40,207 nt of DNA from Pseudomonadota bacterium (GTDB lineage: Bacteria; Bdellovibrionota; FAC87; UBA2466): assembly GCA_043718025.1 (NCBI GenBank), contig JAYSWN010000042.1, forward strand, positions 1 to 40,207, given 5' to 3'. The position numbers and the translations under genes were made by a program. Under the pieces are notes generated by a model. It was not told where the DNA came from, searched no databases, and worked only from the letters and a program-made list of their open reading frames with translations. Shown here in pieces: positions 4,371-23,355 of the stretch; within the stretch, counting starts at the first letter, position 1; each line of letters starts with the position of its first letter.

Positions 4371-5291
4371 ATGGACCGGTGGCACCGCAGCGTACTATTA
4401 AACGAAACCTTAGAGCTTCTTGGCGAGCTAAAAGGCGGTGTGTTTGCCGATCTTACCTTCGGAGAGGGTGGGCACACCGAAGCAATTTTAGAGCGTGGAG
4501 CCAAACAGGTATTGGCGGTAGACCGCGATAGCGAAGCTATACAGCGTTACTTAAAGGATGGCGCCCTGCGGAACGACCCCCGTCTAAAGATTTTTCACGG
4601 CAACCTCTCCAGCTTTCCGGACATGGGCTCGGAAATGGGGTTGGTTGAACCGCTCAATGGTATTTTGATGGATTTGGGCGTGAGTACACGCCAATTGCTC
4701 GAAGGTAATCGCGGGTTCTCCTTTGCCGAAAGCGGCCCTCTCGACATGCGTATGAATCGTAGCGAGGGACCAACCTTAGAAGAACTACTGGCGCAGATCG
4801 AAGCCCCGCAACTGGCCGACATCATTTACGAGAATACCGACTTGCGAACCTCTCGTAAGGTGGCGAGGCAAATTCTATTTGCCTACGAAAAGGGGAATCT
4901 AAAGACCACTGAAGACCTAGCCAAGCTTTTTGCCTTCGCAAAACCAAGACCCAACGATAAAAACCCAGCCACCGTCATTTTTTTGGCGCTCAGAATGTGG
5001 GTAAATCAAGAAGGACGAGAGGTCAGAGAAACCATCCCCCGGCTAATCCCAATGCTGAAGCCTGGCGGTCGCCTTGCCGTGATCACCTTTCATTCTTCAG
5101 AAGACCGTTGGGTGAAAAATATATTTCAAAGCCTGGCTGGTCAGTGTGTTTGCTTCAAGAACCCGTGTGAATGTAAACGAGAACAGCAAGTTAAGTTTGT
5201 CACCCGCAAAGCCATTGGCCCCTCTGACGATGAGAAGAGAGACAACGCCCGATCGCGAAGTGCGCTTTTGAGGTGCGTTGAACGCTTATAA
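4371..5291 (+). CDS. rsmH: 16S rRNA m4C1402 methyltransferase
   Basis: HRSVLLNE, DLTFGEGGH, MDLGVS, GPLDMRM, ITFHSSEDR and NARSRSA motifs; first gene of the dcw cluster here. Confidence 0.97.
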   Translation: MDRWHRSVLLNETLELLGELKGGVFADLTFGEGGHTEAILERGAKQVLAVDRDSEAIQRYLKDGALRNDPRLKIFHGNLSSFPDMGSEMGLVEPLNGILMDLGVSTRQLLEGNRGFSFAESGPLDMRMNRSEGPTLEELLAQIEAPQLADIIYENTDLRTSRKVARQILFAYEKGNLKTTEDLAKLFAFAKPRPNDKNPATVIFLALRMWVNQEGREVRETIPRLIPMLKPGGRLAVITFHSSEDRWVKNIFQSLAGQCVCFKNPCECKREQQVKFVTRKAIGPSDDEKRDNARSRSALLRCVERL

Positions 5292-5356: not shown

Positions 5357-5653
5357 ATGACTAAACGTCTCGAAGGCCTAATTTGGGTCGCTTTGATTTT
5401 TGGCGCCACCTACGTACTTATTTCGGTGCGCACGGAAACCGTGAATGCCACCTACGAATATGTAAAAATTGAGAAACAGTTGAAAATTGAAGAGCAAAGT
5501 TTACAAAATCTTCGCGTGGAGTGGCTAAGACTAACCTCACCCAAGCACCTGCTCTCGCTAGCCCGTCGTCTTGGTTTACAAGCCCCTATTTTCAATCAGG
5601 TGATCCGTTATGATCCGCATGAAACCACCATCCACGCCGCCCGCGTTCAGTGA
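5357..5653 (+). CDS. ftsL: Cell division protein FtsL
   Basis: Short N-tail, one TM helix, coiled coil ending LRVEWLRLTSPKHLLSLARRLGL; lies between rsmH and ftsI. Confidence 0.85.
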   Translation: MTKRLEGLIWVALIFGATYVLISVRTETVNATYEYVKIEKQLKIEEQSLQNLRVEWLRLTSPKHLLSLARRLGLQAPIFNQVIRYDPHETTIHAARVQ

Positions 5654-7583
5654 GCGTCAGCCTGCAGTTTCCTCGGCCGCGCGAACCCGCTTTCTGTTTT
5701 GCTGCCTTTTGGCCTTTCTTGCCGCAATCGGCCTGCGCCTTTTCCGTCTCCAGATCGTGGGTAGTGAGGAGCTGGAGTCGCTCGCGCAGAAACAATTTCA
5801 GAAAGCGGGAACGACTGCCCCTTACCGGGCATCGCTCTTAGATAGAAATGGCGAAGAGTTGGCGGTAAGCCTTAGCTCGAGCTCCATTTTCGCCCGCCCT
5901 CGCCTAATCCGGAATAAGAGAAAGACCGCCAGTGCTTTGGCCAAAACACTCGGTGGCAGCCAAGAAAAATGGCTGAGCCGAATCGATACCGTTAAATCCT
6001 TCGTTTGGATTCAGCGACAAGTTGAGCCCGACGTGGCCGCCAAGATTTCTCGTTTGAACCTTCCCGGCCTATTCATCGAATCAGAAAACCGACGCGTTTA
6101 CCCAAATGGACGACTGGCGGCAAATCTCATCGGTTTTACCGACATAGATGGCAATGGGCTCACCGGTCTCGAACTGGGGCTAAACTCCACGCTCGTTGAA
6201 AAAGGGCACCGCTACTCCGTGGTTCCCGACGGCAAAGGCAACGCCTCGTACATCGAAAAGCCAAAGGAAAAGCCGGCAGAAAGGACGCCACCAATTCGGC
6301 TGACGATAGAACGTCACCTTCAGCACGTCGTTGAAGAAGAACTTGAGCAGACACTAAAAGAGACCGGTAGTAAGTTTGCTTACGCCATTGTGATGGACCC
6401 GAAAAACGGTGAGATCCTCGCGTGGGGGCAGGCTCCTACATTCGACCCAAACCGAGCCAACGAGTCGCCTTTAGAAACCCATCCGCTGCGCTCCTTTTCG
6501 ACAGCCTATGAACCCGGTTCGATTCTAAAACCAATTTTTGTGGCTGAGGCACTTCAGCAAGGTAAGCTCGATTCCAATGCTCTAATCGACTGCGGGGCCG
6601 GCAGCATCAAAGTAGGTAAAGAGACAATTCGCGAGGCCGAGTCTCACGAAAAATTTGGTTTCATTTCACTCGAAAGAATCCTTGTCGTGTCTAGCAACGT
6701 CGGGGCAGTTCGGGTTGGACAAGCCCTTGGACCAGAACTCATTCGTCAGGGGTTAGATCGTTTTGGGCTGCTCAGCAAGATGAACCTTCCGTTGCCAGGT
6801 GAAGCGTCGTCGCACATTAAATGGGATGACTATTTGAAAAATCCAATGCACCTGGCCACCGTTTCGTTCGGACAAGGCGCCGCCTTTAATCTCACGAACG
6901 TAGTTGCCGCGTACGCTCCATTCGCCAATGGTGGATTCCGTGTAATTCCACACGTAACGCCCCCCGCCGCGCCCTCCGAGCCTCAACGAATCTTAAGCCC
7001 ACGGGTGGCTGAAAAGCTTCGCAGTTACCTTACGTCGGCGGTGGAATCAAAAGACGGCACCGGGAAACGGGCGGCCATACCGGGAATTCGCGTGGCCGGA
7101 AAAACGGGAACAGCACAGAAGTACATGACGGGCGTCGGCTATGGAGGAAAAAATTACCTCTCGTCATTTATTGGGTTTTTACCAGCCGAGGCGCCCGAGT
7201 TGTTGATCGGCATCATGGTTGATGAGCCCAAAGGCAAATTTTATGCTGCGGATGTGGCGGTCCCAACTTTTCAACGCTTGGGACTAAAGGCATTGCAGAT
7301 TTTGAATCGCATCCCGAAACAACCGTTTGTCCCCTCCAATGAGTTGGTACTCTCTCCTCAGGCGGGGAACGAAAACCGGATTGTAAAAAAGGACGAAAAA
7401 GGGCGGCTACTCATGCCCGAACTTCGAGGCAATTCGCTTCGCGAAGCCATTGAACAGCTGGGAATGGCTGCGGTTCCGATCAAGATTCAAGGAACCGGCT
7501 ACGTCCAGCGCCAAAAACCTCAAGCGGGAACGCCCCTCACCGCCCAATCTGCCATCGAGCTTGCGTTCTCGCCAGCTGGCTGA
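5610..7583 (+). CDS. ftsI: Class B PBP FtsI/PBP3 with C-terminal PASTA domain
   Basis: RASLLDRNG, RRVYPNG, GLTGLE, EPGSILK (SxxK), SSN (SxN) and KTGTAQ motifs; PASTA-like MPELRGNSLREA...GTGYVQRQKP. Confidence 0.95.
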   Translation: MIRMKPPSTPPAFSERQPAVSSAARTRFLFCCLLAFLAAIGLRLFRLQIVGSEELESLAQKQFQKAGTTAPYRASLLDRNGEELAVSLSSSSIFARPRLIRNKRKTASALAKTLGGSQEKWLSRIDTVKSFVWIQRQVEPDVAAKISRLNLPGLFIESENRRVYPNGRLAANLIGFTDIDGNGLTGLELGLNSTLVEKGHRYSVVPDGKGNASYIEKPKEKPAERTPPIRLTIERHLQHVVEEELEQTLKETGSKFAYAIVMDPKNGEILAWGQAPTFDPNRANESPLETHPLRSFSTAYEPGSILKPIFVAEALQQGKLDSNALIDCGAGSIKVGKETIREAESHEKFGFISLERILVVSSNVGAVRVGQALGPELIRQGLDRFGLLSKMNLPLPGEASSHIKWDDYLKNPMHLATVSFGQGAAFNLTNVVAAYAPFANGGFRVIPHVTPPAAPSEPQRILSPRVAEKLRSYLTSAVESKDGTGKRAAIPGIRVAGKTGTAQKYMTGVGYGGKNYLSSFIGFLPAEAPELLIGIMVDEPKGKFYAADVAVPTFQRLGLKALQILNRIPKQPFVPSNELVLSPQAGNENRIVKKDEKGRLLMPELRGNSLREAIEQLGMAAVPIKIQGTGYVQRQKPQAGTPLTAQSAIELAFSPAG

Positions 7584-7591
7584 TTCTTTAT

Positions 7592-8869
7592 ATGACAGAC
7601 ATGTTTCAACCGACCGAAGAATTTAAAAAATTTGCCGCATTGGATGCACGTCTAGTCGAGATCTGTAAAAAAGTTAAAATCCTGTCGCAGCTCGCGTGGC
7701 CTACCGGCATGGACGAAGTCTTTCTTGATGGCTGGAAAAAACAGAATCCCAAAAACCCGCTTCCTGTTTTTCGCCTGGTAAATCTTACTGATGAAAGCCG
7801 CATTTTAGAAAAAATTATTAAAGAGTGCGACATCAGCCATCCCATCGGAAACTACTTGGCCGAAACTGCACAGAGCTACTTCGTGGCCACCCAACTGTTG
7901 GCCACGCAAGGCACCCCCGCGTTTACCGAGTGCTCAGCTACTCTTTATGGAAAACCGACCGATCGCATTGAATCTTCCGGTCTCACTCACCTTGATGCCG
8001 CCCAAAAATTTATTGAGACGACACAAAACTCCATGGAGGCTTTTCAAGATGGCGATGCGGACTATTGTCTGACTGCCGAAACTGTGGCGAAAGAGCTAAA
8101 GGATCGTCTTGGGGCATTTTTTTCCGATGATAAGATCAATGTAATCGTCGATAATGAGCTAAACGCCAAGGCCGCGGCCGGTGCCCAGAAAGTGCGCTTA
8201 CGCGGCAAAACTTGTTTCTCCCATCTTGAGTTAGATCAGTTGATTCAGCACGAGGGATTCGTGCACATGCTCACCGCCATCAATGGGCGTCGTCAAAAAG
8301 ACTTTGCCTCATTAGGATTAGGTTCCCCGCGCACGACCCGCACTCAAGAGGGGTTGGCCACTTTTTCGGAGCTAATTACTGGAACGATGGATTTGAATCG
8401 ATTGCGACGGATTGCCCTTCGTATTCCCGCCGTGCAGATGGGGTTGGACGGGGCCGATTTCATCGACGTCTTCCGTTTCTTTTTGGAGGCGGGGCAAACC
8501 GAGAAAGAGAGTTTCCAGTCGGCGGCCCGGGTTTTCCGAGGTGGCCAGCCTGCGGGAGGCGGAATCGTTTTCACCAAAGACTCTGTTTACATTCAGGGGC
8601 TTATTTATACCCATCTATTTCTGCTTAAGAGCATCGAGGAAAATAAATTTTTCTTCGCCGAGCATCTTTTCACGGGCCGCCTTACTTTGGGCGACATAGT
8701 TCGCTTGGAACCGTTCATCGAAAAACAGTGGATGTCGCCGCCACGGTATCTGCCGCCGTGGCTTCGCAATCGTCAGAAGCTGGCGGCTTTTTTGACCTAC
8801 TCCTCGTTCATTAATCAGATTGCGCTAAAAGAATTTACGCTTGAGGACTTCGCGAAACGCGGAATTTGA
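7592..8869 (+). CDS. QEGLA-motif / DUF1704 (MATCAP-family) metallopeptidase
   Basis: HEGFVH (HExxxH), TRTQEGLA, RVFRG and FTKDSVYIQG match the QEGLA-motif protein family (TIGR02421/DUF1704). Confidence 0.88.
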   Translation: MTDMFQPTEEFKKFAALDARLVEICKKVKILSQLAWPTGMDEVFLDGWKKQNPKNPLPVFRLVNLTDESRILEKIIKECDISHPIGNYLAETAQSYFVATQLLATQGTPAFTECSATLYGKPTDRIESSGLTHLDAAQKFIETTQNSMEAFQDGDADYCLTAETVAKELKDRLGAFFSDDKINVIVDNELNAKAAAGAQKVRLRGKTCFSHLELDQLIQHEGFVHMLTAINGRRQKDFASLGLGSPRTTRTQEGLATFSELITGTMDLNRLRRIALRIPAVQMGLDGADFIDVFRFFLEAGQTEKESFQSAARVFRGGQPAGGGIVFTKDSVYIQGLIYTHLFLLKSIEENKFFFAEHLFTGRLTLGDIVRLEPFIEKQWMSPPRYLPPWLRNRQKLAAFLTYSSFINQIALKEFTLEDFAKRGI

Positions 8870-8903
8870 CCGCCCCCCGCCCGTAGAATAGTTGTCTTTG
8901 GGC

Positions 8904-10385
8904 ATGAGCCGCCCTCAATTCCCTCTTTTTAATAGAGTTACTTTAAAAACTAAAGTGCCTCCACATATCATTTTTTCCAATCTAACCAACAATTCACGGG
9001 CGGCGACCAATGGCACCCTGTTTTTCTGTATTCGCGGAACGCTGCGTGACGGCAACCAGTTTATTTCTGAGGTAAATGCTCAGGGGGCTGCAGCCGTTGT
9101 GGTCGAAGATGAATTAATTTTCGACGCCACGCCGAATGCGATTTTGGTAACCAACGTTCGTGAGGCTTACGCCCTGGCCTGTGCTGATTGGTTTGGCCAC
9201 CCCTCGCAAAAAGTCAAAGTCGTTGCAGTAACCGGCACCAACGGCAAAACCACTACTTCGTTTTTGATAACTGAGCTGCTGGAGAGCTGGGGATGGAAAA
9301 TGGGTCTGCTCGGAACCGTAGAATACCGGTCGGGGAAAACCACGGTGGGATCAAACTTGACCACCCCCGACGCCTGGCTGCTACAAGAAAACTTGGCATC
9401 AATGGCTCAAAACAAGGTACCGGCGGTGGCGCTCGAGGCCTCTTCGATAGCCTTGCATCAGCATAGACTAACTGGCACCGACGTCCAGGTGGCCGTATTT
9501 ACGAATCTCACCCAAGATCACTTGGACTACCACCACACCTGGGAAAATTATTTCGACGCCAAGTGCCGCCTATTTTTCGAAATGCGTCCGCACTGGAGCG
9601 TGGTGAATCTCGATGATTCTTGGGGGCAAAAACTTGCCGGCAGGGTTTCAGAAAATCAATTGTTCACTTTTTCTGCTAGCGGTAACCAAAAAGCAAGACT
9701 TCGGGCTCACGACTGTCGCATGAGCTCGCGAGGCACCCTCGGAAAGATCACCCACCAGAACGAAACACTAGATTTTGAATTACAGCTGATCGGGCAACAC
9801 AACATCGCAAACGCATTAGCTGCGGTGGGCGCTGCCCTAACCTTGGGGATGCCTTTCAAAAATATTATTACTGCACTCCCTGTGCTCAAAGGGGCGCCAG
9901 GCCGCCTTGAACGCGTGCCCCTTCCGCCCGCGGCGCCGCAGGTTTTTGTAGATTATGCCCATAGTCCAGATGCGCTTGAAAAAGTGACTCAGACCCTAAA
10001 ATCGGTTGTGCCGACAGGGGGGAGACTACTCACAGTCTTTGGGGCCGGGGGTGATCGCGATAGAAGTAAACGCCCACTGATGGCGGCAGCGGTGGCCGCA
10101 GTCAGCGACGTGGTGATTATCACTTCAGACAACCCACGCACCGAGTCGGCCGAGGCAATTATTGAAGACCTCATCGTTGGCATGGGGGATAAACCATTTC
10201 AAAGGCAAAGCGACCGGGCACGGGCCATAGCATTAGCTTTAGAGTTAGCCACCCCTAAAGACCTGGTACTTATCGCCGGAAAAGGGCACGAAACTTACCA
10301 AATTATCGGCACTGAAAAGCGCGACTTTGACGATCGCAAAGTGGTATCCGCCGCTTACTTCGCTCAAAATCGTGTGTTACGATAA
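8904..10385 (+). CDS. murE: UDP-MurNAc-dipeptide:meso-DAP ligase
   Basis: VTGTNGKTT, LTTPD, EASS, NLTQDHLDYH, VDYAHSPD, GAGGDRD, SDNPR (DAP specificity) and AGKGHE. Start ATG 8904 (or TTG 8892). Confidence 0.96.
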   Translation: MSRPQFPLFNRVTLKTKVPPHIIFSNLTNNSRAATNGTLFFCIRGTLRDGNQFISEVNAQGAAAVVVEDELIFDATPNAILVTNVREAYALACADWFGHPSQKVKVVAVTGTNGKTTTSFLITELLESWGWKMGLLGTVEYRSGKTTVGSNLTTPDAWLLQENLASMAQNKVPAVALEASSIALHQHRLTGTDVQVAVFTNLTQDHLDYHHTWENYFDAKCRLFFEMRPHWSVVNLDDSWGQKLAGRVSENQLFTFSASGNQKARLRAHDCRMSSRGTLGKITHQNETLDFELQLIGQHNIANALAAVGAALTLGMPFKNIITALPVLKGAPGRLERVPLPPAAPQVFVDYAHSPDALEKVTQTLKSVVPTGGRLLTVFGAGGDRDRSKRPLMAAAVAAVSDVVIITSDNPRTESAEAIIEDLIVGMGDKPFQRQSDRARAIALALELATPKDLVLIAGKGHETYQIIGTEKRDFDDRKVVSAAYFAQNRVLR

Positions 10386-10532
10386 CGTTCGGTTTTGACA
10401 CGCTGCCACACGATAAGGCACGGGGTATTGGGTCCCTGGAGAAGAAGCAAATCACTGAAATTTCGTTAGGTTATGAGTTTCTTCTTGCTGCTCTGAACCC
10501 TTTTCGCTAAACCATCGCCGGGAGAAAAAAAC

Positions 10533-11609
10533 TTGCTCTATCATCTGCTGTTTCCGTTGGCCGGACACATTCATGTCTTCAACGTAATTCAGTACATCAC
10601 GTTTCGCGCATTGATGGCGGGTTTGACTGCACTAGCTATGAGTTTGGCGCTGGGTCCGGTTTTCATTCGGATTCTAAGAGGCCATCAACTTGGACAATCG
10701 GTGAGAGACGACGGTCCAAAATCTCATTTGAAAAAGCAGGGAACGCCGACCATGGGAGGAATCTTGATTCTTCTCACCGTCACTGCGTCGACTTTGTTAT
10801 GGGCTGATTTACACAATTCCCTTGTTTGGATCGTCTTAGGCGTCATGTTGGGATTTGGCTTCATTGGCTGGCTTGATGACTATAAAAAGATCAAGTTTAA
10901 GAATTCAAAGGGGCTTTCCGAACGCTCCAAGATCATTTTTCAGACCCTGGTCGCCATGACTGCGATCGGATATGTGTTTTTAGTTAAGGGTTTCGACAGC
11001 CACCTATACGTTCCTTTTTTCCGAAATGTTACACCTGATTTAGGAGTGGGTTACCTGGTGTTTGCCTGGTTCGTGATCGTGGGAACTTCAAATTCTGTTA
11101 ACTTAACGGATGGACTCGATGGACTCGCCATTGGCCCCGTTATCAGTACAGCCCTCACCTTCGGAATCTTTGCCTACTTGGCCGGTAACGCGCGTTTTGC
11201 CGACTACCTTTACGTGGCCCGAGTGAACGAAGCTGGCGAACTTGCTATCCTTTGTACCTCGATTGTTTGCGCTGGAATGGGTTTTTTGTGGTTTAACACC
11301 TACCCCGCCCAGGTGTTCATGGGCGATGTAGGGGCCCTCGCTTTGGGGGCTGCGCTCGGTACGGTTGCGTTACTTGTTAAGCAAGAGTTGCTTCTGGTGA
11401 TTGTTGGCGGAATTTTTGTGGTAGAAGCCATCTCCGTAATTACCCAGCGCATTTCGTATAAGACGACGCGCAAGAGGGTTTTTAAGATGGCTCCTATTCA
11501 CCATCACTTCGAGTTGTCGGGATGGGCGGAGCCACAAGTTACGGTTCGATTTTGGATAATTTCTGTCGTGTTGGCCATGCTGGGCTTAGCGACGCTGAAA
11601 TTAAGGTAA
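10533..11609 (+). CDS. mraY: Phospho-MurNAc-pentapeptide transferase
   Basis: KQGTPTMGG, GWLDDY, NSVNLTDGLDGL, FMGDVG and MAPIHHHFE; GGAG RBS before the TTG start. Confidence 0.98.
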   Translation: MLYHLLFPLAGHIHVFNVIQYITFRALMAGLTALAMSLALGPVFIRILRGHQLGQSVRDDGPKSHLKKQGTPTMGGILILLTVTASTLLWADLHNSLVWIVLGVMLGFGFIGWLDDYKKIKFKNSKGLSERSKIIFQTLVAMTAIGYVFLVKGFDSHLYVPFFRNVTPDLGVGYLVFAWFVIVGTSNSVNLTDGLDGLAIGPVISTALTFGIFAYLAGNARFADYLYVARVNEAGELAILCTSIVCAGMGFLWFNTYPAQVFMGDVGALALGAALGTVALLVKQELLLVIVGGIFVVEAISVITQRISYKTTRKRVFKMAPIHHHFELSGWAEPQVTVRFWIISVVLAMLGLATLKLR

Positions 11610-11631: not shown

Positions 11632-13014
11632 ATGATCAAAGTTAAAAAAGGCATGAAAGCCTTAGTGGTTGGTCTCGGCCGCAGCGGCGCCGCAGCCACT
11701 AAATTGCTGAGTAAAAAAGGCATCAAAGTTACTGTCACCGATGAACTCAACAAGAGCGATTTAAAAGCCTCGTTGGACTCTTTAGAAGGTTACGAATTTG
11801 AAGCCGAGTTAGGAAAGCACGTCCTTAAGTCGTTCTGTGATGCTGACTTTATTGTGGTGAGCCCCGGTGTCCGTTTGGATATCAAGCCTTTGCAAACCGC
11901 AGAAAAATCGAAAGTGCCGATCATCAGTGAAATTGAGTTGGCTTGCCAGTTCATCTCGGAGCCAATCATTGCGGTTACCGGAACTAATGGCAAAACCACC
12001 ACTTCTACATTGATCGCTGAAATCATCCAGGCTGGCGGAAAAACCGCTTTCTTGGGTGGTAATGTGGGCATACCGCTTTCTGAGTACGTACTTCGCCGCG
12101 ATAAATGCGACTACGTGGTGGCAGAGATTTCGAGCTTCCAGCTCGACGCCACTTATTCACTGAAGCCGCATATTGCTCTCTTTCTCAATGTGGCTCCCGA
12201 CCATTTGGATCGGTACCCAAGTTACGATGCTTATGTAAATGCGAAGATGCGCCTCATTCAAAATATGACGGAAGAGGATTACGTCATCACCAACCTGCGA
12301 GATCAAAAGCTGATGCCGATGCTGTCTTCGCAAAAGCCTAAACTTTTGACTTTTACGTCGGATCCGGTGGCAAAGATTCCTCCGCATTTCTTAGAAAAAT
12401 TTCAAGGATCGCATCTGGATCCAGCCACTCAAATGAATTTGAGGGTGAGCCGCTGGAAAGAGCATAATTTTTCGTTGCAAAACATCACGCTTCGCGGAAT
12501 TCACAACAAAGAAAACATGATGGCGGCCACTCTAGCCGCAAAGCTGGCGGGAATTACCAACGAGTCTATTCAAAAGGTGCTCACCACCTTTAAACCACTT
12601 CCCCATCGTATGGAGTTCGTGGCGAAAAAGAATCAGGTCTCGTTTTATAACGATTCGAAGGGAACTAACGTTCACTCGTTAATCCGTTCTCTCGAGAGCT
12701 TTAAGGAACCCGTTATCCTAATCGCCGGTGGAAAAGATAAAGGGGAAGATTACGGTCCATTGGCTTTGCCTATCCGCCGACACGTAAAGAACTTGATTCT
12801 CGTTGGCGAAGCCAAAGAAAAAATCAACCGTTCGATCGGTGACTATAGCGAAACCTTTTTAGTGGGAACTTTTGAAGAGGCCGTTTATTTGGCCTACCAA
12901 AAATCTCGCTCGGGCGACGTGATTTTATTATCTCCCGGCTGTGCGAGCCAAGACATGTTCAAGAATTACGAAGAGCGCGGCGACTACTTCAAAAAAATCG
13001 TAGCCCGTTTCTAA
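11632..13014 (+). CDS. murD: UDP-MurNAc-L-Ala:D-Glu ligase
   Basis: VVGLGRSG, VSPG, VTGTNGKTTT, EISSFQL, DHLDRY, PHRME, NDSKGTN and LSPGCASQDMF. Confidence 0.97.
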   Translation: MIKVKKGMKALVVGLGRSGAAATKLLSKKGIKVTVTDELNKSDLKASLDSLEGYEFEAELGKHVLKSFCDADFIVVSPGVRLDIKPLQTAEKSKVPIISEIELACQFISEPIIAVTGTNGKTTTSTLIAEIIQAGGKTAFLGGNVGIPLSEYVLRRDKCDYVVAEISSFQLDATYSLKPHIALFLNVAPDHLDRYPSYDAYVNAKMRLIQNMTEEDYVITNLRDQKLMPMLSSQKPKLLTFTSDPVAKIPPHFLEKFQGSHLDPATQMNLRVSRWKEHNFSLQNITLRGIHNKENMMAATLAAKLAGITNESIQKVLTTFKPLPHRMEFVAKKNQVSFYNDSKGTNVHSLIRSLESFKEPVILIAGGKDKGEDYGPLALPIRRHVKNLILVGEAKEKINRSIGDYSETFLVGTFEEAVYLAYQKSRSGDVILLSPGCASQDMFKNYEERGDYFKKIVARF

Positions 13015-14167: not shown

Positions 14168-15284
14168 CGTAATTGTCGATTGGAGGGTGTTTTATGAACA
14201 AAAAGGGGGGAACTTCCGAAATTTGAGCGAGATATTTCCACGCCTTATAAAGTATGCAAACATAACCCTTAGGTCCCTGCATCGGGCAAAACACAACCCG
14301 ATACCCAAGGGAATGCCACTCGTACCAATTGACCTTCCCTTATTATTGCGACGATTTCCCGAGAACGCATTGAAAGAAAAAATCTGGGGATGGAAGCTTC
14401 GCGATTTTAAAAATTCAGTTTTTCACTCGCTCTACTATTCCCTTCCTCCAAATCCAAACCTACCCCTAGTTGTGTCATTTCTTGATGTCATACCTGAGCT
14501 TTTCCCGGAATTAAGTACTGGACCAAATTTTAATAGACTGAGAAAGCGAAAAGAATTTTTGGCAAAGCACGCCTCGCGAATCCTTGCAATCTCGAACACG
14601 ACAAAATGTTCAGTAAGTGACTACTTTCAAATTGATCCAGAAAAGATTGATGTAGCTTCTTGTGGAGTAGACTTTCCCTTCTTTTCGAAATTAATTTCAG
14701 ACCAACGGGTAAAAGAATGGCGAGACAGATGGAAAATGCCACACCCATTTATTCTTATCGTCGGTGGAAGAGAATCGCACAAAAACGTCCGCGCTTTTTT
14801 GGAAGGATACTCTCAAACTAATCTCAAAAGGGATTTTCATTTAGTTCTGGCCGGAGAACCGTTGAGTAAAGTAGAAATTGCCTACGTTAACGCTCTAGGC
14901 ATTGATAACCACATCACCAATTTAGTTTTTCCAACCGATGAGGAACTTCAAGCACTTTACAAAACCGCCGAGGCCTTCGTTTACCCCTCACTTTGCGAGG
15001 GCTTCGGACTGCCTCAAATCGAGGCTATGGCTGCCGGAACTCCAGTAGCTCTCTCCAGAACTGCAATCACGTTAGAGGTCGCCGGCGACTCAGGGTTCTA
15101 CTTCGATCCTCGAAGCCCAAGTGACATGGCTAGAGTCGTTCGCAAAGCGATCGAGTCGGGAAAACAATGTCAGAATGTAAAAATCGGTATCGATCGAGCT
15201 CAGCAGTTCACCTGGGAAAAAGCCGCAGAAGACACAGCAAAATGCTACCAGAAAGCTTGGGCCCAAGGAGGGCGAAAAGAATGA
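14112..15284 (+). CDS. Glycosyltransferase family 4 (mannosyltransferase-like)
   Basis: ILAIS, VGGRESHKN and FVYPSLCEGFGLPQIEAMAAGTPV. Start likely ATG 14112, after GGAC/AGAGG; the ORF is open from 14013. Confidence 0.92.
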   Translation: MKSNSLLTQSSTITEKPLSVIVDWRVFYEQKGGNFRNLSEIFPRLIKYANITLRSLHRAKHNPIPKGMPLVPIDLPLLLRRFPENALKEKIWGWKLRDFKNSVFHSLYYSLPPNPNLPLVVSFLDVIPELFPELSTGPNFNRLRKRKEFLAKHASRILAISNTTKCSVSDYFQIDPEKIDVASCGVDFPFFSKLISDQRVKEWRDRWKMPHPFILIVGGRESHKNVRAFLEGYSQTNLKRDFHLVLAGEPLSKVEIAYVNALGIDNHITNLVFPTDEELQALYKTAEAFVYPSLCEGFGLPQIEAMAAGTPVALSRTAITLEVAGDSGFYFDPRSPSDMARVVRKAIESGKQCQNVKIGIDRAQQFTWEKAAEDTAKCYQKAWAQGGRKE

Positions 15285-16939
15285 TGCGGACAGAAAAAAT
15301 TGAGAATCTGTTGAATCAATGGAAGAAGCAGTTTTCCTTACCATCGCGCGAAGAGGCACTGAATCGCATTTCTCCGATGACCAGATCAGGCAAGAAAGGA
15401 CTCTTGTTTTTCCCTTCCCACGAAGACCATACGGACTTCGGAAGCGAACGTTTTTTTAGCATCCATAAAGAACTTAATAAAATTCTCCCGACGATGGCCG
15501 TGATCGAAGATCCTGCCCAACTGGATGCTGCACATTCAGCGGGAAATAGAATTCTAATTTCGCCGGATTTTCCGGAAATAATCCTGACGGCAATTCGTTC
15601 AGCTGCCTGGATTATCGCTTTTGATGATGCGTTAAGGGAAATTGCCACCCACTACGGAATCCCCTATTTCACTGAAGATTTGTTACCCAAGGGTGAGAAT
15701 GAAGCTGATACTGCTTCGGCCTGGGCAAGGACGGTCAGTGAAAAGACCAATCACGAATACAACGCCAAAACGCTACCGGGGAAATTCGAATATGGAATTT
15801 GCACAGTCGTTGACCAAAAGTACGTGGGTTTCTTTTTTGGGCTCATGGAGAACCTTATTCGAGTAACCAAAGGTCCATGGAAAACTTATGTGTTGGCGCT
15901 GGATCTTGAAACAAAGTTACTCATAGAGAAACAGTATCCCAACATGGCCATATCCATTACTTTGGCCAATGAAATATTTACGGGGGATGAGTGGGCGGAC
16001 TTTGAGAGGCGCCCAGTTGCTGAAAGGGCCTATGCCTGTAAGCCCCAGACTATGCTCGCCGCACTAAAGGAGGCTCCTGATTTCCCTGTCTATCTTTGCG
16101 ACGTTGATATCTATTTTTATGATTCGCCTTGCTCACTAAACCATCATCTGCAAGCAAATCAAATTCTCCTCATGCCCCAATGGTCGGATGTATTCGCGTG
16201 GTCTCGTTTCTATGGAATGTATAATTCGGGACTAATGGGAGCCACATCGGAGGCGACCAATTTCTTTAGATGGTGGTCAGAGATGTGTTTCTCGTTCTCC
16301 TCGGTAAACCCGACGCGAGGATATTTCACGGACCAGGGCATGTTAGAAATGGGTACCTGGCTATTCGGCACCATGGGCGTCTATCGTGAATTAGATCACA
16401 ACGTAGCGCCCTGGAATCGAAAGACACTCGGTGTAAATCGACCAAATGAATTCAGCGGCACCCTAGTCCTAAAAGATGGTCGCCGAGTTAAAAGCTACCA
16501 TGCCGCCGGTTCCGACTCAGACGGCTTCTTTCAACTTAAATTTTGTTGGGATCAACTAGCTAGTTTCTTTTCAATTCTCCCGAGCGCAGATGATTTAGAG
16601 CCGCTTTTTCAGAACACCTTAGATCAACAACTGGTCAACTGGCCCAACCTTCGCTCAAGAATTGCGGCTCGCAAGGATTGGGCCCGCCGACTCCACCTAA
16701 AGAAGCAAGTGTTTGGATTCGCGGAAGTTCGCAAACTTCTTCGATCGAACAGGAGCGCTACCGACTCCATCTTGGGACTTTTAAATTGGCTTTTGGCGAC
16801 TTACCGAAAGATCCTTGGAAAAGAGGAGTACTTCGACCCGGCTTCGACGCAAGAGCAAACGTCGCTGGTTGCCATCCAGCAAAAATATACCTTTGGCCCA
16901 ATGAAACCCTCTTTTCTTAAGGAAGCGGTTTCTAGTTGA
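15281..16939 (+). CDS. Two-domain putative glycosyltransferase (GT-B-like N-terminal fragment + GT-A DxD domain)
   Basis: Start ATG 15281 overlaps the GT4 stop and follows AGGAGG. GT-A features: CTVVDQKY, KP, YLCDVDIYFY (DxD), YNSG, WW..C, TDQG and NVAPWN. Paralogue of 23339-25294. Confidence 0.75.
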   Translation: MMRTEKIENLLNQWKKQFSLPSREEALNRISPMTRSGKKGLLFFPSHEDHTDFGSERFFSIHKELNKILPTMAVIEDPAQLDAAHSAGNRILISPDFPEIILTAIRSAAWIIAFDDALREIATHYGIPYFTEDLLPKGENEADTASAWARTVSEKTNHEYNAKTLPGKFEYGICTVVDQKYVGFFFGLMENLIRVTKGPWKTYVLALDLETKLLIEKQYPNMAISITLANEIFTGDEWADFERRPVAERAYACKPQTMLAALKEAPDFPVYLCDVDIYFYDSPCSLNHHLQANQILLMPQWSDVFAWSRFYGMYNSGLMGATSEATNFFRWWSEMCFSFSSVNPTRGYFTDQGMLEMGTWLFGTMGVYRELDHNVAPWNRKTLGVNRPNEFSGTLVLKDGRRVKSYHAAGSDSDGFFQLKFCWDQLASFFSILPSADDLEPLFQNTLDQQLVNWPNLRSRIAARKDWARRLHLKKQVFGFAEVRKLLRSNRSATDSILGLLNWLLATYRKILGKEEYFDPASTQEQTSLVAIQQKYTFGPMKPSFLKEAVSS

Positions 16940-18430: not shown

Positions 18431-19363
18431 ATGGCAAACGTGCTCGCTTTTTCAAAACAAGATTCAACTGCTTCATTAAATCCCCTAAAGGATGCGCTTA
18501 CGGACTTTCTTCAAGGAAAAGATAAGGTTACCGAGGCAATTCTCTGCGCATTACTTGCCGAGGGTCACCTTCTATTCGAAGACATTCCTGGGGTCGGCAA
18601 AACTACTTTAATAAAAGCGCTGTCGCAATGGCTCGGGTTGTCCATGGCTCGAATCCAGTGCACCAGCGATCTTTTACCATCAGATATATTAGGCGTAGAA
18701 ATCTATCAAAACTCTACCGAGGCTTTCGCTTTTCAACCCGGGCCAGTCTTTTCAAATCTGGTTTTTGTCGATGAATTAAATCGTGCCTCGCCGCGTACCC
18801 AGTCGGCACTTTTAGAGGCGATGGCCGAGGGAGTCGTAACGGTTCAGAAAAAGACTTACCCACTGCCCAAGCCTTTTCTGCTTTTCGCCGCCCAGAATCC
18901 CTCGACCGCTTTGGGAACCTATGCCTTGCCCGAATCGCAATGGGATCGATTTTCAATCTGCCTTAGCCTTGGCTACCCCAGCGAAGCAAAAGAGCTGTCG
19001 ATTCTCGAAGCGTCTTCAAAAGATCATTTAGGTAAGGTGCAAGAAAAACTTGTAGATCCGGCAACGCTCATTGCCCTGCAGAATAGAACCAATCAGGTCA
19101 CTTCCAACCGAAGAGTTTCGAGTTATGCGCGACGAGTTTTAGAAAATAGCCGACGCGATTTTTCACCAGGCCTCTCCACCCGGGCAGGGGTACTTTGGAT
19201 GCGGTTGGCCAAGGCGCGGGCGGTACTTCTCGGCCGCGACTACGTGATTCCCGATGATCTGATCGAAATGGCGGTTCCCTGTCTGAGTCACCGAGTTCCC
19301 GCAAAAGACTTAGACGGCAGCGCGAGGATTAATGAACTGCTGCAAAAAACTGCGATTGATTAA
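18431..19363 (+). CDS. moxR: MoxR-family AAA+ ATPase
   Basis: GHLLFEDIPGVGKT, RIQCTSDLLPSDILG, DELNRASPRTQSALLEAM, AQNP and GTYALPESQWDRF. Confidence 0.95.
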   Translation: MANVLAFSKQDSTASLNPLKDALTDFLQGKDKVTEAILCALLAEGHLLFEDIPGVGKTTLIKALSQWLGLSMARIQCTSDLLPSDILGVEIYQNSTEAFAFQPGPVFSNLVFVDELNRASPRTQSALLEAMAEGVVTVQKKTYPLPKPFLLFAAQNPSTALGTYALPESQWDRFSICLSLGYPSEAKELSILEASSKDHLGKVQEKLVDPATLIALQNRTNQVTSNRRVSSYARRVLENSRRDFSPGLSTRAGVLWMRLAKARAVLLGRDYVIPDDLIEMAVPCLSHRVPAKDLDGSARINELLQKTAID

Positions 19364-20391
19364 TGTATTACAAATCCGTTAACCGAGGAATCTCATTCAC
19401 AAAATCGGGCACCTACACGCTCTGTTTTGTGATGTTGCTTGGCATCCTCGCTGCCGCGTCTGGTTACAACTCACTCTTTCTCGCCCTGGCCTTCGGTTCA
19501 GGCCTTCTCATCACCTCTGGTTTACTATCGGAGCGCTCGATAAAGCCAATTGAAGTTTTCGGACAACAGCGCACATTTGCCGAAGCCGAATCGGCATTTC
19601 GTTTAAAGGTGATGATAAAGAACGCAAATAAGAAATCTCCTCTCTTTGGTACCGAAGTTGTGGTCACCGAGAAAATTCCGCGGTTTCGTCTCTTTCATCC
19701 TGAGCTTCCAGCAATAGGGCTTTCGCACTTCTTGCGCCTTATTGCGGGAGAAGAACGACTTGCTCTGATCCCTTGTACAGGGCTGGCTCGGGGTATCTAC
19801 CGCGAGCTACCGTTAGTGCTGCGCACGATTTATCCTTTCGGATTAATTTCGAAATTTAAGGTTAGTACCGTGCCTGCGCCCCTCATTGTCTATCCCAAAG
19901 TGGACGGCGCTTTCCAAAACCAACTTTTGCAAGAACTTCGCTCGGCCATGGTGGCGGGGCAAAGCCACCCTGAATTTCACAGCCACCGAAATTACCTCTC
20001 CGAAGACTCCGCGCGAAAGATCGACTGGAAAAAGAGTGCGGGAAAAGGAATCACAGACTGGTCGATAAAAGTATTTTTCACCCCGGCTGAAAATTTTTTG
20101 TTCGTCGTCAGCCCCGATTGGGGGCAAATCGCGACCAGCCCGGGCACCGTGCAACGCGAGATCTTTCTCTCCCGTGTGCTGACGGCGTGCGAAACCCTCT
20201 GCATCCAGGCACCGCAATTTTTTCTTCGTCTTCCGCACGGCGCAGGGTTTCTGCAAGGAGCTGAGTCCGTACGTGAGTATTTGGCGGACTATCCAGCCCT
20301 TTCACCGCATTCGGCGAGCCTACCGGCCCACCAACTTTTGAATTTAGTCGTTCAGATGAATTCTCACCGCTGGGAGAGCAGCGATGGGTAA
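19363..20391 (+). CDS. DUF58-domain membrane protein (MoxR partner)
   Basis: N-terminal TM pair, RG.Y, YPFGL, LIVYP and EFHSHRNY...KIDWKKSA; translationally coupled to moxR. Confidence 0.85.
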   Translation: MYYKSVNRGISFTKSGTYTLCFVMLLGILAAASGYNSLFLALAFGSGLLITSGLLSERSIKPIEVFGQQRTFAEAESAFRLKVMIKNANKKSPLFGTEVVVTEKIPRFRLFHPELPAIGLSHFLRLIAGEERLALIPCTGLARGIYRELPLVLRTIYPFGLISKFKVSTVPAPLIVYPKVDGAFQNQLLQELRSAMVAGQSHPEFHSHRNYLSEDSARKIDWKKSAGKGITDWSIKVFFTPAENFLFVVSPDWGQIATSPGTVQREIFLSRVLTACETLCIQAPQFFLRLPHGAGFLQGAESVREYLADYPALSPHSASLPAHQLLNLVVQMNSHRWESSDG

Positions 20392-22315
20392 GCGCCCCTC
20401 CATCCGCCGCTACCATGAGCTCACTCTCGCACTGGTCATCGGCTTGTCATTTTCAATTGGCTTAAGTTCTGCGGTTTTCCCGGCCTGGGCCGGCCTGACA
20501 TTTCTCCTCCTATCCGCAGCGCTCAGGGCACAGAAACAAAACCTCCGCTTTTACCGCGCAATGGCGGTGTTCGTTACCGTTGCGAGCTTCATGTGCTCGC
20601 TCTTCATTGCGTTTACGACTTACCGCGAAACCCAAGACATTGTTTTCTTTTTCGGCCCAATTTTTAGTTCGTGCGTTAGCCTCGCCTTGATGTTTCACGT
20701 ACCCCACGGGCTCGATTGGAAAATTAGCGCCAGCACCATGATGCTGGCCATCACCTCGGTCATAGGCGGTGGTGAAGTGGTCGACCATTTTTTCTTCATC
20801 CTATTCTGCGCGGCGTTCGTGTTTTATCTAAACGCTACCTACTTCATAGAACGTGAGCCTACCGAACAACTTCCGGAGGGCTACTTTCGCCCCTTTGTGA
20901 TCTGTCTCTTTGCTGGTTGGAGCTTCGGAATTTTTATCTTTGTGTTTTTCCCGCGAACTATTCAGTGGAGTAACCCGTTCGGCCTTCGTGACCGTCAGGT
21001 GCTAACGGGGTACTCGGGGGCTCTTAGTCTGAACGGAAGCGGCCCAACCCCCTCTTCCTCGCTGGCGTTGGTCGTTGAGCCATTAGACGCCACGGTAAGA
21101 ACTTGGTTAACCTTAAACGGACCTGATCTTTACTTCCGTGGCAATGCCCTAGACCAATTTGACGGGCTAAAGTGGAATCAGACTCTCTTAGCGGCAACGC
21201 CATTAAAACTTCATCGCCCGAGAAAACCCACGGGCATAGTTTACGGTATAAAAATTTATCGCGAACCTCACTCCAATCCCTGGATTGTCTATCCGGGCAG
21301 CCTCTGGAACTTAGATATTCCGTATGCCACCACTGGCCGGCCATTGATTGATGAAGCGGGAAACGTGCTCCGATCCATTACCGGATACCTCCGTTACTCC
21401 TACACTATTGATTTTGAAGAGACCCCACTCTTCACTTACGAAATGAACCCCGAGTTGACGTCACGGGAGTTTGAACTTTACACCGGGGTTCCTCCTTCAA
21501 TCGCTGAGGCAACCTACTTCAAGGTTTGGTTAGAAAATTTTTCGTCAACGAAAAAGGCGGAACCATTAATTGAGCGTTTAGCGGCAGTTTCGAAATATTT
21601 TCAAAGTAATTATAAAGCGGTATTGGCCAAAAACTCCCTATCATTAGAAAAGTTTTTGACCGCAGATAAGGAAGGTCACTGCGAATACTTTGCCACTGTA
21701 ACCGCACTCTCTCTCCGCAGTTGGGGGTTCCCCGCGCGGGTAGTGCTTGGCTACCGTGGGGGACAGTTTAACCGCCATTCACAGGTTCTCGAAGTACGCG
21801 ACGAGAATGCCCACGCTTGGGTTGAGGTATTCTTGCCAAAACGCGGCTGGCTTCGCTACGACCCCACGCCTCTGGTACGGAGGCAGCCACGTTTCGCGTG
21901 GATGCAAGAAATGGAGTTATGGACCGGTGCGGCCAAATACTGGTTCAGTCGCTACGTGGTCGATTACAACTCCAAAACCCAAACCGAGCTAATTCTCAAC
22001 TTCGGCAAAAATGGTTTGTTTGGATTCAAAAAACGGGCAATGCCCAAAACCCGCCATTTGCTTCTAGCGCTTGTGGGGGGATTGCTGATCGTATTCGCGG
22101 CGAGCCTGAAGTGGCGTAGACGCCAGTCAGCCCGCCAAAACGCAATCCCGCCGTACTACCGCGACTTCAAAAGAAAGCTGCGCCGGTTTGGTTTCATTCG
22201 ACGTCCGAATGAAACTTACCGCCTATTTCATTCTCGAATTGTTCACCGCGAAATTTCCCAACAAACGCTCAGCGACATAGATCGCCGCCTTGAAAAAGAT
22301 CTCTACGCCGCGTAA
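20384..22315 (+). CDS. DUF3488 / transglutaminase-like membrane protein (TgpA-like)
   Basis: Multi-TM N-terminus, FVFFPR, YFRG.ALD.FDG..W, and triad motifs GHCEYFA, AHAWVEV and YDPTP. Confidence 0.92.
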   Translation: MGKRPSIRRYHELTLALVIGLSFSIGLSSAVFPAWAGLTFLLLSAALRAQKQNLRFYRAMAVFVTVASFMCSLFIAFTTYRETQDIVFFFGPIFSSCVSLALMFHVPHGLDWKISASTMMLAITSVIGGGEVVDHFFFILFCAAFVFYLNATYFIEREPTEQLPEGYFRPFVICLFAGWSFGIFIFVFFPRTIQWSNPFGLRDRQVLTGYSGALSLNGSGPTPSSSLALVVEPLDATVRTWLTLNGPDLYFRGNALDQFDGLKWNQTLLAATPLKLHRPRKPTGIVYGIKIYREPHSNPWIVYPGSLWNLDIPYATTGRPLIDEAGNVLRSITGYLRYSYTIDFEETPLFTYEMNPELTSREFELYTGVPPSIAEATYFKVWLENFSSTKKAEPLIERLAAVSKYFQSNYKAVLAKNSLSLEKFLTADKEGHCEYFATVTALSLRSWGFPARVVLGYRGGQFNRHSQVLEVRDENAHAWVEVFLPKRGWLRYDPTPLVRRQPRFAWMQEMELWTGAAKYWFSRYVVDYNSKTQTELILNFGKNGLFGFKKRAMPKTRHLLLALVGGLLIVFAASLKWRRRQSARQNAIPPYYRDFKRKLRRFGFIRRPNETYRLFHSRIVHREISQQTLSDIDRRLEKDLYAA

Positions 22316-22413: not shown

Positions 22414-23355
22414 GTGAAACTCGCCATTTCCGGTGCATCCGGTTTTCTGGGTCGTGAGGCCATTGACTACCTTTCCGCCGATCCTAAACTCACTATTCAC
22501 GCCCTTTGTAGTTCAACGGCCCAGCCCCTAGCCGAAGTTGATGGGCTCAAAGTCTTTAGTGGCTCACTGGCTGATTCAAAAACGGTTAAGGAATGGCTCT
22601 CCGGCTGCGATGCGGTTTTGCATTTGGCCGAACGGGGGATGCCCTCACAGGTGGTAGAGCGTCCCGATACCCAAATCACCCGCAACATTACCAACGCCGT
22701 CTGCCTAACCAGCGCGATGAGGGACTTGGGAATCAAGAACATGATTTACGCTTCAAGTGGAGGAGCACTCTACGAAGGAGTTTCAAGGGAGGGGGATCGC
22801 CTTAACGAAAAAAGTCCGATTTCTTTGAGAAATCCATATGCGATCAGTAAGTACTTCGTTGAACAGCATTGTGAACGTCTAAACCACGAAGAGTCATGGA
22901 ATATCTCGATACTACGAATTTCAAATCCCTACGGCATTCACCAAATTGGCCGCACACGACAGGGCATCATCGGGCTAGCCATCGAGAAAATTTATTTTGG
23001 CAAAGGGATTCCACTGTGGGTCTCACAAAAAACTGCGAAAGATTTTTTGTACGTGACTGATTTGTGCCGCGCCTTCGAGCTATTCTCCAAAAAACCCACC
23101 GCCGGCGTTTTTAATATTGGTAGTGGGCAAAGCACGACGCTTGAAACTCTGTTTCGCAATCTAGAAAAAATTACCGGACGAAAACCCAACATCTGCACCA
23201 CACCCAAACCCTTAAACGAACCGCAAATTACCGCGCTTGATTGCCTGAAAGCAAAGACGGCGGTGGGTTGGGAGTGCTCAGTTTCTCTTGAGTCAGGACT
23301 AGTTCAATTGTGGGATTGGCGCTGTAAAAAAGCACCGCTTACGCGGGCCGCTTAA
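22414..23355 (+). CDS. NAD-dependent epimerase/dehydratase
   Basis: ISGASGFLG, HLA, YASSGG, YAISK (YxxxK), RISNPYG, KDFLYV.D and FNIGSG. Confidence 0.92.
   Translation: MKLAISGASGFLGREAIDYLSADPKLTIHALCSSTAQPLAEVDGLKVFSGSLADSKTVKEWLSGCDAVLHLAERGMPSQVVERPDTQITRNITNAVCLTSAMRDLGIKNMIYASSGGALYEGVSREGDRLNEKSPISLRNPYAISKYFVEQHCERLNHEESWNISILRISNPYGIHQIGRTRQGIIGLAIEKIYFGKGIPLWVSQKTAKDFLYVTDLCRAFELFSKKPTAGVFNIGSGQSTTLETLFRNLEKITGRKPNICTTPKPLNEPQITALDCLKAKTAVGWECSVSLESGLVQLWDWRCKKAPLTRAA

Follow-up and report, generated by a model that had tools for sequence, protein, structure and literature searches.

A MATCAP-family metallocarboxypeptidase gene behind ftsI, probably a passenger in a bacterial dcw segment

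Why should a gene for a relative of MATCAP, the eukaryotic tubulin carboxypeptidase, stand between ftsI and murE in a bacterial dcw operon? The question arises from a 40,207-nucleotide stretch of DNA (contig JAYSWN010000042.1 of assembly GCA_043718025.1), the whole of which is called the window here. A conserved place in the dcw operon would have offered a first clue to what the bacterial MATCAP proteins do, and a preliminary description of this locus had read it as a possible sign of a role in division or peptidoglycan metabolism. The clue is weak here, because the junction that holds the gene is probably the end of a transcription unit, where insertions are tolerated.

The dcw segment in the window is short, and its genes lie on the plus strand. 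It is opened by rsmH (4371..5291; TIGR00006, 256 bits against a cut-off of 154), followed by an FtsL-like ORF of 94 amino acids (5357..5641), by ftsI, which encodes PBP3 with PBP_dimer, Transpeptidase and PASTA domains (5610..7583; PF03717, PF00905 and PF03793), by the gene in question (7592..8869), by murE (8904..10385; TIGR01085, 488 bits against 257) and then, according to family scans, by mraY (10533-11609), murD (11632-13014) and glycosyltransferase genes. Other contigs carry murF, murC and ftsA-ftsZ/ddl. The FtsL-like ORF yields nothing above cut-off in the family scan and is named by its position and conservation; it is kept at the same place in relatives, with 40-77% identity, and one of these gives a weak match to DivIC (E 0.0025). 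In the three readable genomes of the genus, murF is absent between murE and mraY (window 10385-10533), where most relatives retain it; in the source genome (G000) it stands alone on another contig (C47:8962-10368). Divergence within the genus is much faster in FtsI (70-83% identity), which also forms a long branch, and in MurE (58-64%) than in MurD (90-92%).

The ORF at 7592-8869 starts with ATG, codes for 425 amino acids with the motifs HEGFVH (residues 220-225, codons 8249..8266) and QEGLA (residues 252-256, codons 8345..8359), and is the sole match to PF08014 (MATCAP / DUF1704) in the whole genome. It begins 8 bp past the ftsI stop codon, which ends at 7583, and is separated by 34 bp from the murE ATG at 8904; murE could also start at an in-frame TTG at 8892. 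These positions confirm the preliminary description. An assembly artefact was ruled out by further contigs and by the same gene order in relatives: the whole region is spanned by contigs of two sequencing runs (possibly the source runs), and the QEGLA-murE junction (8721-9056) is bridged by a contig from a separate study. A recent transfer into the source genome was also rejected, since the GC3 of the gene matches that of its neighbours (0.55 versus 0.54-0.56 in G000, and 0.73 versus 0.76-0.80 in the related genome G001).

The product, P0001, is a member of PF08014 (352 bits, E 4e-105, gathering cut-off 27), and its top clusters in the ESM Atlas are 99-100% PF08014 (score 0.99). With the TIGR02421 QEGLA equivalog it shares the motifs, and its close homologues are so named by NCBI and JGI, but its 291 bits are under the curated cut-off of 338.65. 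Judged by its sequence, P0001 belongs to a divergent, stand-alone QEGLA subfamily of about 420 amino acids that shares the TIGR02421 motif and fold and differs from the equivalog in its wandering gene context. The family name is tied to Pseudomonas aeruginosa PA3697. Regulation of fhp by PA3697 has been described (PMC8070244).

A PDB search with the single sequence of P0001 gave no real match, and MATCAP was found by profile. An AlphaFold model, built on an alignment of 118 rows (two short sequences were dropped from the 120 listed homologues), has a pLDDT of 94.3. Its top structural match is human MATCAP (MATCAP1/TMCP1, KIAA0895L; PDB 7Z5G and 7Z6S), with a Foldseek E of 3.6e-9, TM scores of 0.57/0.72 and, in a structure comparison by VIA, a Z of 23.7 and an rmsd of 3.1 Å over 294 residues. 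The next structural neighbours, DUF885 (Z 16-19) and the M32 carboxypeptidases (Z 9-10), are larger, 8-14% identical and far weaker matches. In the profile alignment MATCAP H280/E281/H285/E316 correspond to P0001 H220/E221/H225/E253, that is, to two metal ligands and the predicted catalytic base in HEGFVH and the predicted third metal ligand in QEGLA, and MATCAP R334/R373/R376/K389/D390/Y393 correspond to P0001 R273/R313/R316/K329/D330/Y333. All eight of H220, E221, H225, E253, R313, R316, K329 and Y333 are invariant among the 118 aligned homologues, as is the Q252, E253, G254 triplet. The homology with MATCAP claimed earlier is therefore borne out, and P0001 has in common with MATCAP1/TMCP1 and TMCP2 the gluzincin fold, the HExxxH motif with a downstream Glu, and the further matching residues just listed. 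However, it is 16-18% identical to MATCAP, lacks the disordered N-terminal extension, has QEG instead of EEG, and belongs to a host with neither tubulin nor an EE-tailed division protein.

In gluzincins, a metal and a Glu base activate water, and basic residues bind the terminal carboxylate of the substrate. The matched residues of P0001 presumably take the substrate-binding role that they have in MATCAP, an assignment drawn from the alignment. Because the gene is under purifying selection within the genus (dN 0.07-0.21, with synonymous sites saturated or nearly so) and the catalytic residues are intact, P0001 is likely to be an active enzyme. Neither a signal peptide nor a transmembrane segment was found in it (the Kyte-Doolittle maximum over 19-residue windows is 0.94), in agreement with the cytoplasmic location predicted before.

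Bacterial MATCAP-family proteins are widespread. PF08014 comprises 3,151 clusters at 50% identity and is present in 113 of 301 sampled genomes of the phylum. Full-text searches, judged by titles and abstract openings and with most subscription papers beyond their reach, returned no biochemical study of a bacterial QEGLA/MATCAP enzyme and none of such an enzyme in dcw; the term DUF1704 came up there in a Plasmodium context alone. A fusion of QEGLA with a glutathione S-transferase domain is seen in one database protein (P0472), and four loci of the phylum have a glutathione S-transferase-like gene beside QEGLA (e.g. L259:811-1416).

How far does the position behind ftsI extend? The class comprises 38 genomes in this study, and the closest relatives are MAGs labelled Bdellovibrionota, Deltaproteobacteria or Pseudomonadota by NCBI. 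A single QEGLA gene per genome is present in 32 of the 38, and six are QEGLA-less. The ftsI-QEGLA pair occurs in all four genomes of the genus (G000-G003); murE follows in three (G000, G001 and G002), and in G003 the contig ends. These four are the only ones with a dcw-positioned gene among the 32 QEGLA-bearing genomes, and thus the position is not kept across the class. A scan of the genome contigs matched the three genus relatives and, weakly, one more. The 80 best of 189 metagenome loci that hold near homologues have a median length of 5.8 kb, and 79 of them show no dcw gene. The exception, L062, has the order rsmH-ftsL-ftsI-QEGLA; its FtsI is just 44.5% identical to ours, and the remaining 12 codons of the locus are unlike MurE. 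The position therefore extends beyond this assembly and beyond a single genus. In the gap between ftsI and QEGLA of L062 (2535-2719) there are nested inverted repeats, whose arms of 35 and 27 nt are 97% and 100% complementary, respectively (fold z -10.7); they resemble a REP-type or miniature mobile element.

The genus groups with L062 and six database proteins in a single clade of the QEGLA tree (SH-aLRT 82), hereafter the dcw clade. Seven of 122 QEGLA entries are on a contig of exactly the same size in base pairs as that of an FtsI entry (120 were compared); shifted sizes predict 0.48 such cases. All seven fall in the dcw clade, four of them outside the genus (on contigs of 4.1, 12.6, 42.8 and 176 kb), and the size of the 12.6-kb contig also equals that of a MurE entry; three further members of the clade are on contigs too short for this matching. 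A QEGLA/MurE pairing at 3,175 bp (P0013/P0346) was taken as chance, its MurE lying outside the class clade. Outside the genus, adjacency of ftsI and QEGLA is read directly in L062 only, and for the four other lineages we infer a shared contig. The seven QEGLA-linked FtsI proteins, three from the genus and four from outside at 44-52% identity, are compatible with a single clade. A first FtsI tree was unresolved, and a FastTree of 104 rows placed the FtsI of the genus on a long branch, apart from the other linked ones; a tree constrained to hold the linked FtsI together gained 11.7 log units over the free quick tree, but with a p-AU of 0.74 it does not prove the clade. The simplest reading of these data is that QEGLA was inserted behind ftsI once and inherited by several genera. 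An insertion limited to one genus is refuted by L062 and by the contigs of matching size. Thirty conserved positions that cover the active site show no difference among the 12 rows of the dcw clade and are near-invariant in 54 other close homologues, and a single column is diagnostic of the clade.

The preliminary description had also relied on a highly conserved adjacency of ftsI and murE. The gene order of dcw clusters is in general well conserved (PMC10214165). This conservation does not hold at the ftsI-murE junction in the present class. In a survey of 20 murE loci, out of 35 matches, ftsI is directly upstream of murE in six, unrelated genes separate the two in seven, and no ftsI was found in the flank of the other seven (about 6 kb, but 2.9 and 1.5 kb in two). 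The seven inserts, four of which are on the same strand, comprise a protein-arginine-deiminase (PAD)-like pair (twice), a Na:solute symporter (twice), a TerC set, an unknown protein of 540 amino acids and another of 148; the last, in G010, likewise starts 8 bp past the ftsI stop codon. The PAD-like gene (PF03068), secreted-looking and with a small partner, is antisense between ftsI and murE in the sister genus g4 (L038:7380-8978 and L054:2811-4412). Two genomes of the sister family have a gene for an M14 zinc carboxypeptidase, its N-terminus signal-like, immediately before murE and on the strand of murE (L042:4704-6149 and L051:4543-5988).

A predicted promoter of murE, TTGACC - 17 nt - TAGTTG (8866..8894, +), would explain this break in the dcw order, and the stop codon of QEGLA (TGA in the window) shares bases with its -35 box in G000-G002. 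The pattern T.GAC.-N17-TA precedes murE in 11 of 23 genomes, representing 7 of 14 genera, as compared with none of 69 in-gene windows, 0.49 expected from shuffles and 0-3 for other spacers; it was picked after eight of the 11 cases had been seen and therefore remains a prediction, and a generic sigma-70 scan does not call the promoter in the window. Some 6-15 nt separate it from the murE start, and the final T usual in a -10 box is mostly absent; the placement suggests very short murE leaders. Given this promoter-like motif, murE probably starts a transcription unit of its own and QEGLA closes that of ftsI, and the promoter would also account for the tolerance of the junction to insertions. 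Neither gap flanking QEGLA has a stable hairpin (RNA-fold z +1.3 and -0.3 versus shuffles), as noted before, and no inverted repeat was found in 8800-8960. A terminator-like consensus inside the QEGLA gene (8770-8786) is at chance level, the region having 23 in total against 20.7 expected. Of the co-transcription proposed earlier, the part with ftsI stands as likely, the sequence suggesting read-through from ftsI, while murE probably has a separate promoter. With unrelated inserts in seven of 20 relatives and a likely promoter of murE, the reading of the position as a signal of a role in division or peptidoglycan metabolism is not supported.

Elsewhere, the orthologues adjoin RlmI-like genes, rplM-rpsI, FGase or GshB-like ligases, which is the kind of distribution that the preliminary description had named as speaking against its own proposal. 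A distant-clade QEGLA (31-35% identity) stands beside an RlmI-like gene in 21 of the 24 QEGLA-bearing genomes of the family outside the genus, in a slot usually preceded by a Glu/Leu/Phe/Val dehydrogenase gene. Six genomes (G000-G003, G006 and G016) have the RlmI slot without QEGLA and carry instead a QEGLA of a second clade, which is behind ftsI in the genus and divergent from FGase in g4. The dcw copy apparently replaced the distant QEGLA of the family's RlmI slot. In the 30 best-scoring loci of the phylum, QEGLA is next to a PPIase gene in 20 and within 1.5 kb of rpsI in 11, and is beside ftsI or murE in none; three of them have a divergent, non-FtsI transpeptidase-domain gene on the opposite strand. 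The neighbours are scattered in near homologues from metagenomes, where 77 of 123 flanking ORFs were scanned.

QEGLA forms an operon with FGase and a GshB-like ligase (FGase-QEGLA-PRK12458) in two of four annotated plasmid regions, on rhizobial plasmids of Aminobacter and Shinella. G000 has a ligase that probably belongs to the same subfamily: its best family is PRK12458 (360 bits against a cut-off of 408), and it is 41% identical to the plasmid operon partner, as compared with 26% for the canonical GshB of G000. However, the genes are unlinked in G000, its ligase being on contig C51; no FGase was found in the four genomes G000-G003; and the QEGLA of the operon type is 622 amino acids long and 29% identical. 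Neither the ligase nor FGase occurs in any of the 80 near-homologue metagenome loci (the best 80 of 189), and the PRK12458-type ligase is present in 37 of the 38 class genomes, including all six that are QEGLA-less. The ligase belongs to a class-wide run of genes for a PilZ/histidine-kinase-like protein, the ligase, ddl and aminopeptidase P, seen on C51 of G000 (L232:11051-15857, minus strand) and in L213-L231. In 20 loci chosen for the ligase, ddl is in the same locus in 19 and directly downstream in 18, the PilZ protein is found in 17 and aminopeptidase P in 16.

P0001 is, we think, probably a cytoplasmic housekeeping metallocarboxypeptidase whose gene rides as a passenger on the rsmH-ftsL-ftsI unit, and not a division enzyme. 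This reading follows from the lability of the junction, the predicted promoter of murE and the unchanged active site of the dcw clade. The metal, held by H220, H225 and E253, would activate water together with E221, and the basic residues would hold the terminal carboxylate of the substrate, so that one C-terminal residue might be freed per round. The substrates may be Glu-containing peptides or protein tails, most likely products of the PRK12458 GshB-like ligase. Gene loss in an ancestor would have emptied the amino-acid dehydrogenase/RlmI slot of its older QEGLA; a copy of the second clade would have been acquired, would have settled behind ftsI once and would be expressed from the ftsI unit. 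Against the passenger reading, the link with ftsI has lasted across genera, whereas the other inserts at the junction look genus-level; the partnership with the ligase is borrowed from a longer and quite different QEGLA subfamily; and a housekeeping role leaves the ligase-ddl adjacency across the class unaccounted for. The position of the gene is nevertheless real, conserved and lineage-specific, and is best read as hitchhiking.

A rather unlikely alternative is that the enzyme trims the tails of ribosomal proteins or of tagged nascent chains, as an eraser of RimK-type glutamylation. The neighbours of QEGLA are recurrently translation genes, namely the RlmI-like gene and rpsI in the counts given above and rsmH at the head of the present unit, but the counts lack independence, as the genomes are related. 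In Photobacterium damselae, a QEGLA gene (27.5-fold) and rimK are both up at low salt (PMC10308900). G000, however, has no RimK-grade match, its best match to PF08443 being the PRK12458 protein (E 3e-14), and its S6 protein ends in GLGASF and lacks a Glu-Glu end.

It is also unlikely that P0001 edits peptidoglycan precursors or recycling products in the manner of LdcA or MpaA, perhaps paired with the PRK12458 ligase. The position behind ftsI is kept in the genus and probably in four other lineages, an Mpl-like ligase (with matches under the TIGR01081 cut-off) is found in 35 of the 38 class genomes and S66 LdcA in just one, and ddl shares its locus with the ligase in 19 of 20 cases. However, all six QEGLA-less genomes have the Mpl-like gene, and S66 was not found in them, so that QEGLA is not a needed substitute; the active site is the same as in homologues outside dcw; and in most members of the class QEGLA is far from wall genes. 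Furthermore, MATCAP cuts L-L peptide bonds, whereas LdcA-type cleavage frees D-Ala.

A quite improbable form of this idea is an add-and-trim pair with both arms tied to wall genes, the ligase sharing an operon with ddl and aminopeptidase P and the MATCAP-type peptidase being retained after ftsI through several genera of one sub-lineage. The two would add and remove an amino acid on cytoplasmic peptidoglycan precursors or recycled stems, in a proofreading cycle that replaces the missing LdcA. If true, it would give the bacterial MATCAP proteins their first substrate. The link to the wall is kept open because the PRK12458 ligase adjoins ddl across the class, an operon that makes the link testable. 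An ATP-grasp ligase opposed by a peptidase is also what the RimK/RimB and RloABC pairs of Pseudomonas present, and rlo mutants have cell-shape and beta-lactam phenotypes (PMC12239564). The peptidases in those pairs are retropepsins, however, and RimK itself has no counterpart of that grade in G000; the word QEGLA is absent from PMC12239564.

That P0001 edits the tails of FtsZ or FtsA, as a bacterial counterpart of tubulin detyrosination, is very unlikely despite the structural homology with MATCAP and the tail variants of the genus (FtsZ with Pro at -3 in three complete sequences, FtsA with WIE[ED]VF in four of four), because no penultimate Glu is found in the 28 complete FtsZ tails or the 30 FtsA tails and the endings are alike with or without QEGLA. 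The FtsZ tails (28 of 28 complete ones, from 30 loci) end in ...PTFLRR-x-x-D, including those of the six QEGLA-less genomes, the FtsA tails end in VF in 30 of 30, and in the source genome ftsA-ftsZ is on a different contig from QEGLA. The residue taken off by human TMCP1 may be Tyr, Ala, Glu or Gly, but the enzyme requires a penultimate Glu and is inactive on tails with a penultimate Asp or Gln (PMC10499314), and it binds acidic tails electrostatically (PMC12612596). The FtsZ editing suggested in the preliminary description thus finds no footing in these tails.

Three minor observations concern other parts of the material. An unannotated Pseudomonas phage record (OQ572403.1:63458-64684) contains a full-length match to QEGLA with 31% identity, which could be host DNA. 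Positions 18431-22315 of the window hold a tandem of a MoxR-type AAA gene, a 342-aa ORF without a Pfam match and a TgpA-like transglutaminase gene. Two related ORFs of approximately 600 amino acids without Pfam matches (15167-16939, plus strand, and 23339-25294, minus strand) are situated amid LPS-type glycosyltransferase genes, and a stretch resembling this pair is located near murE in G015.
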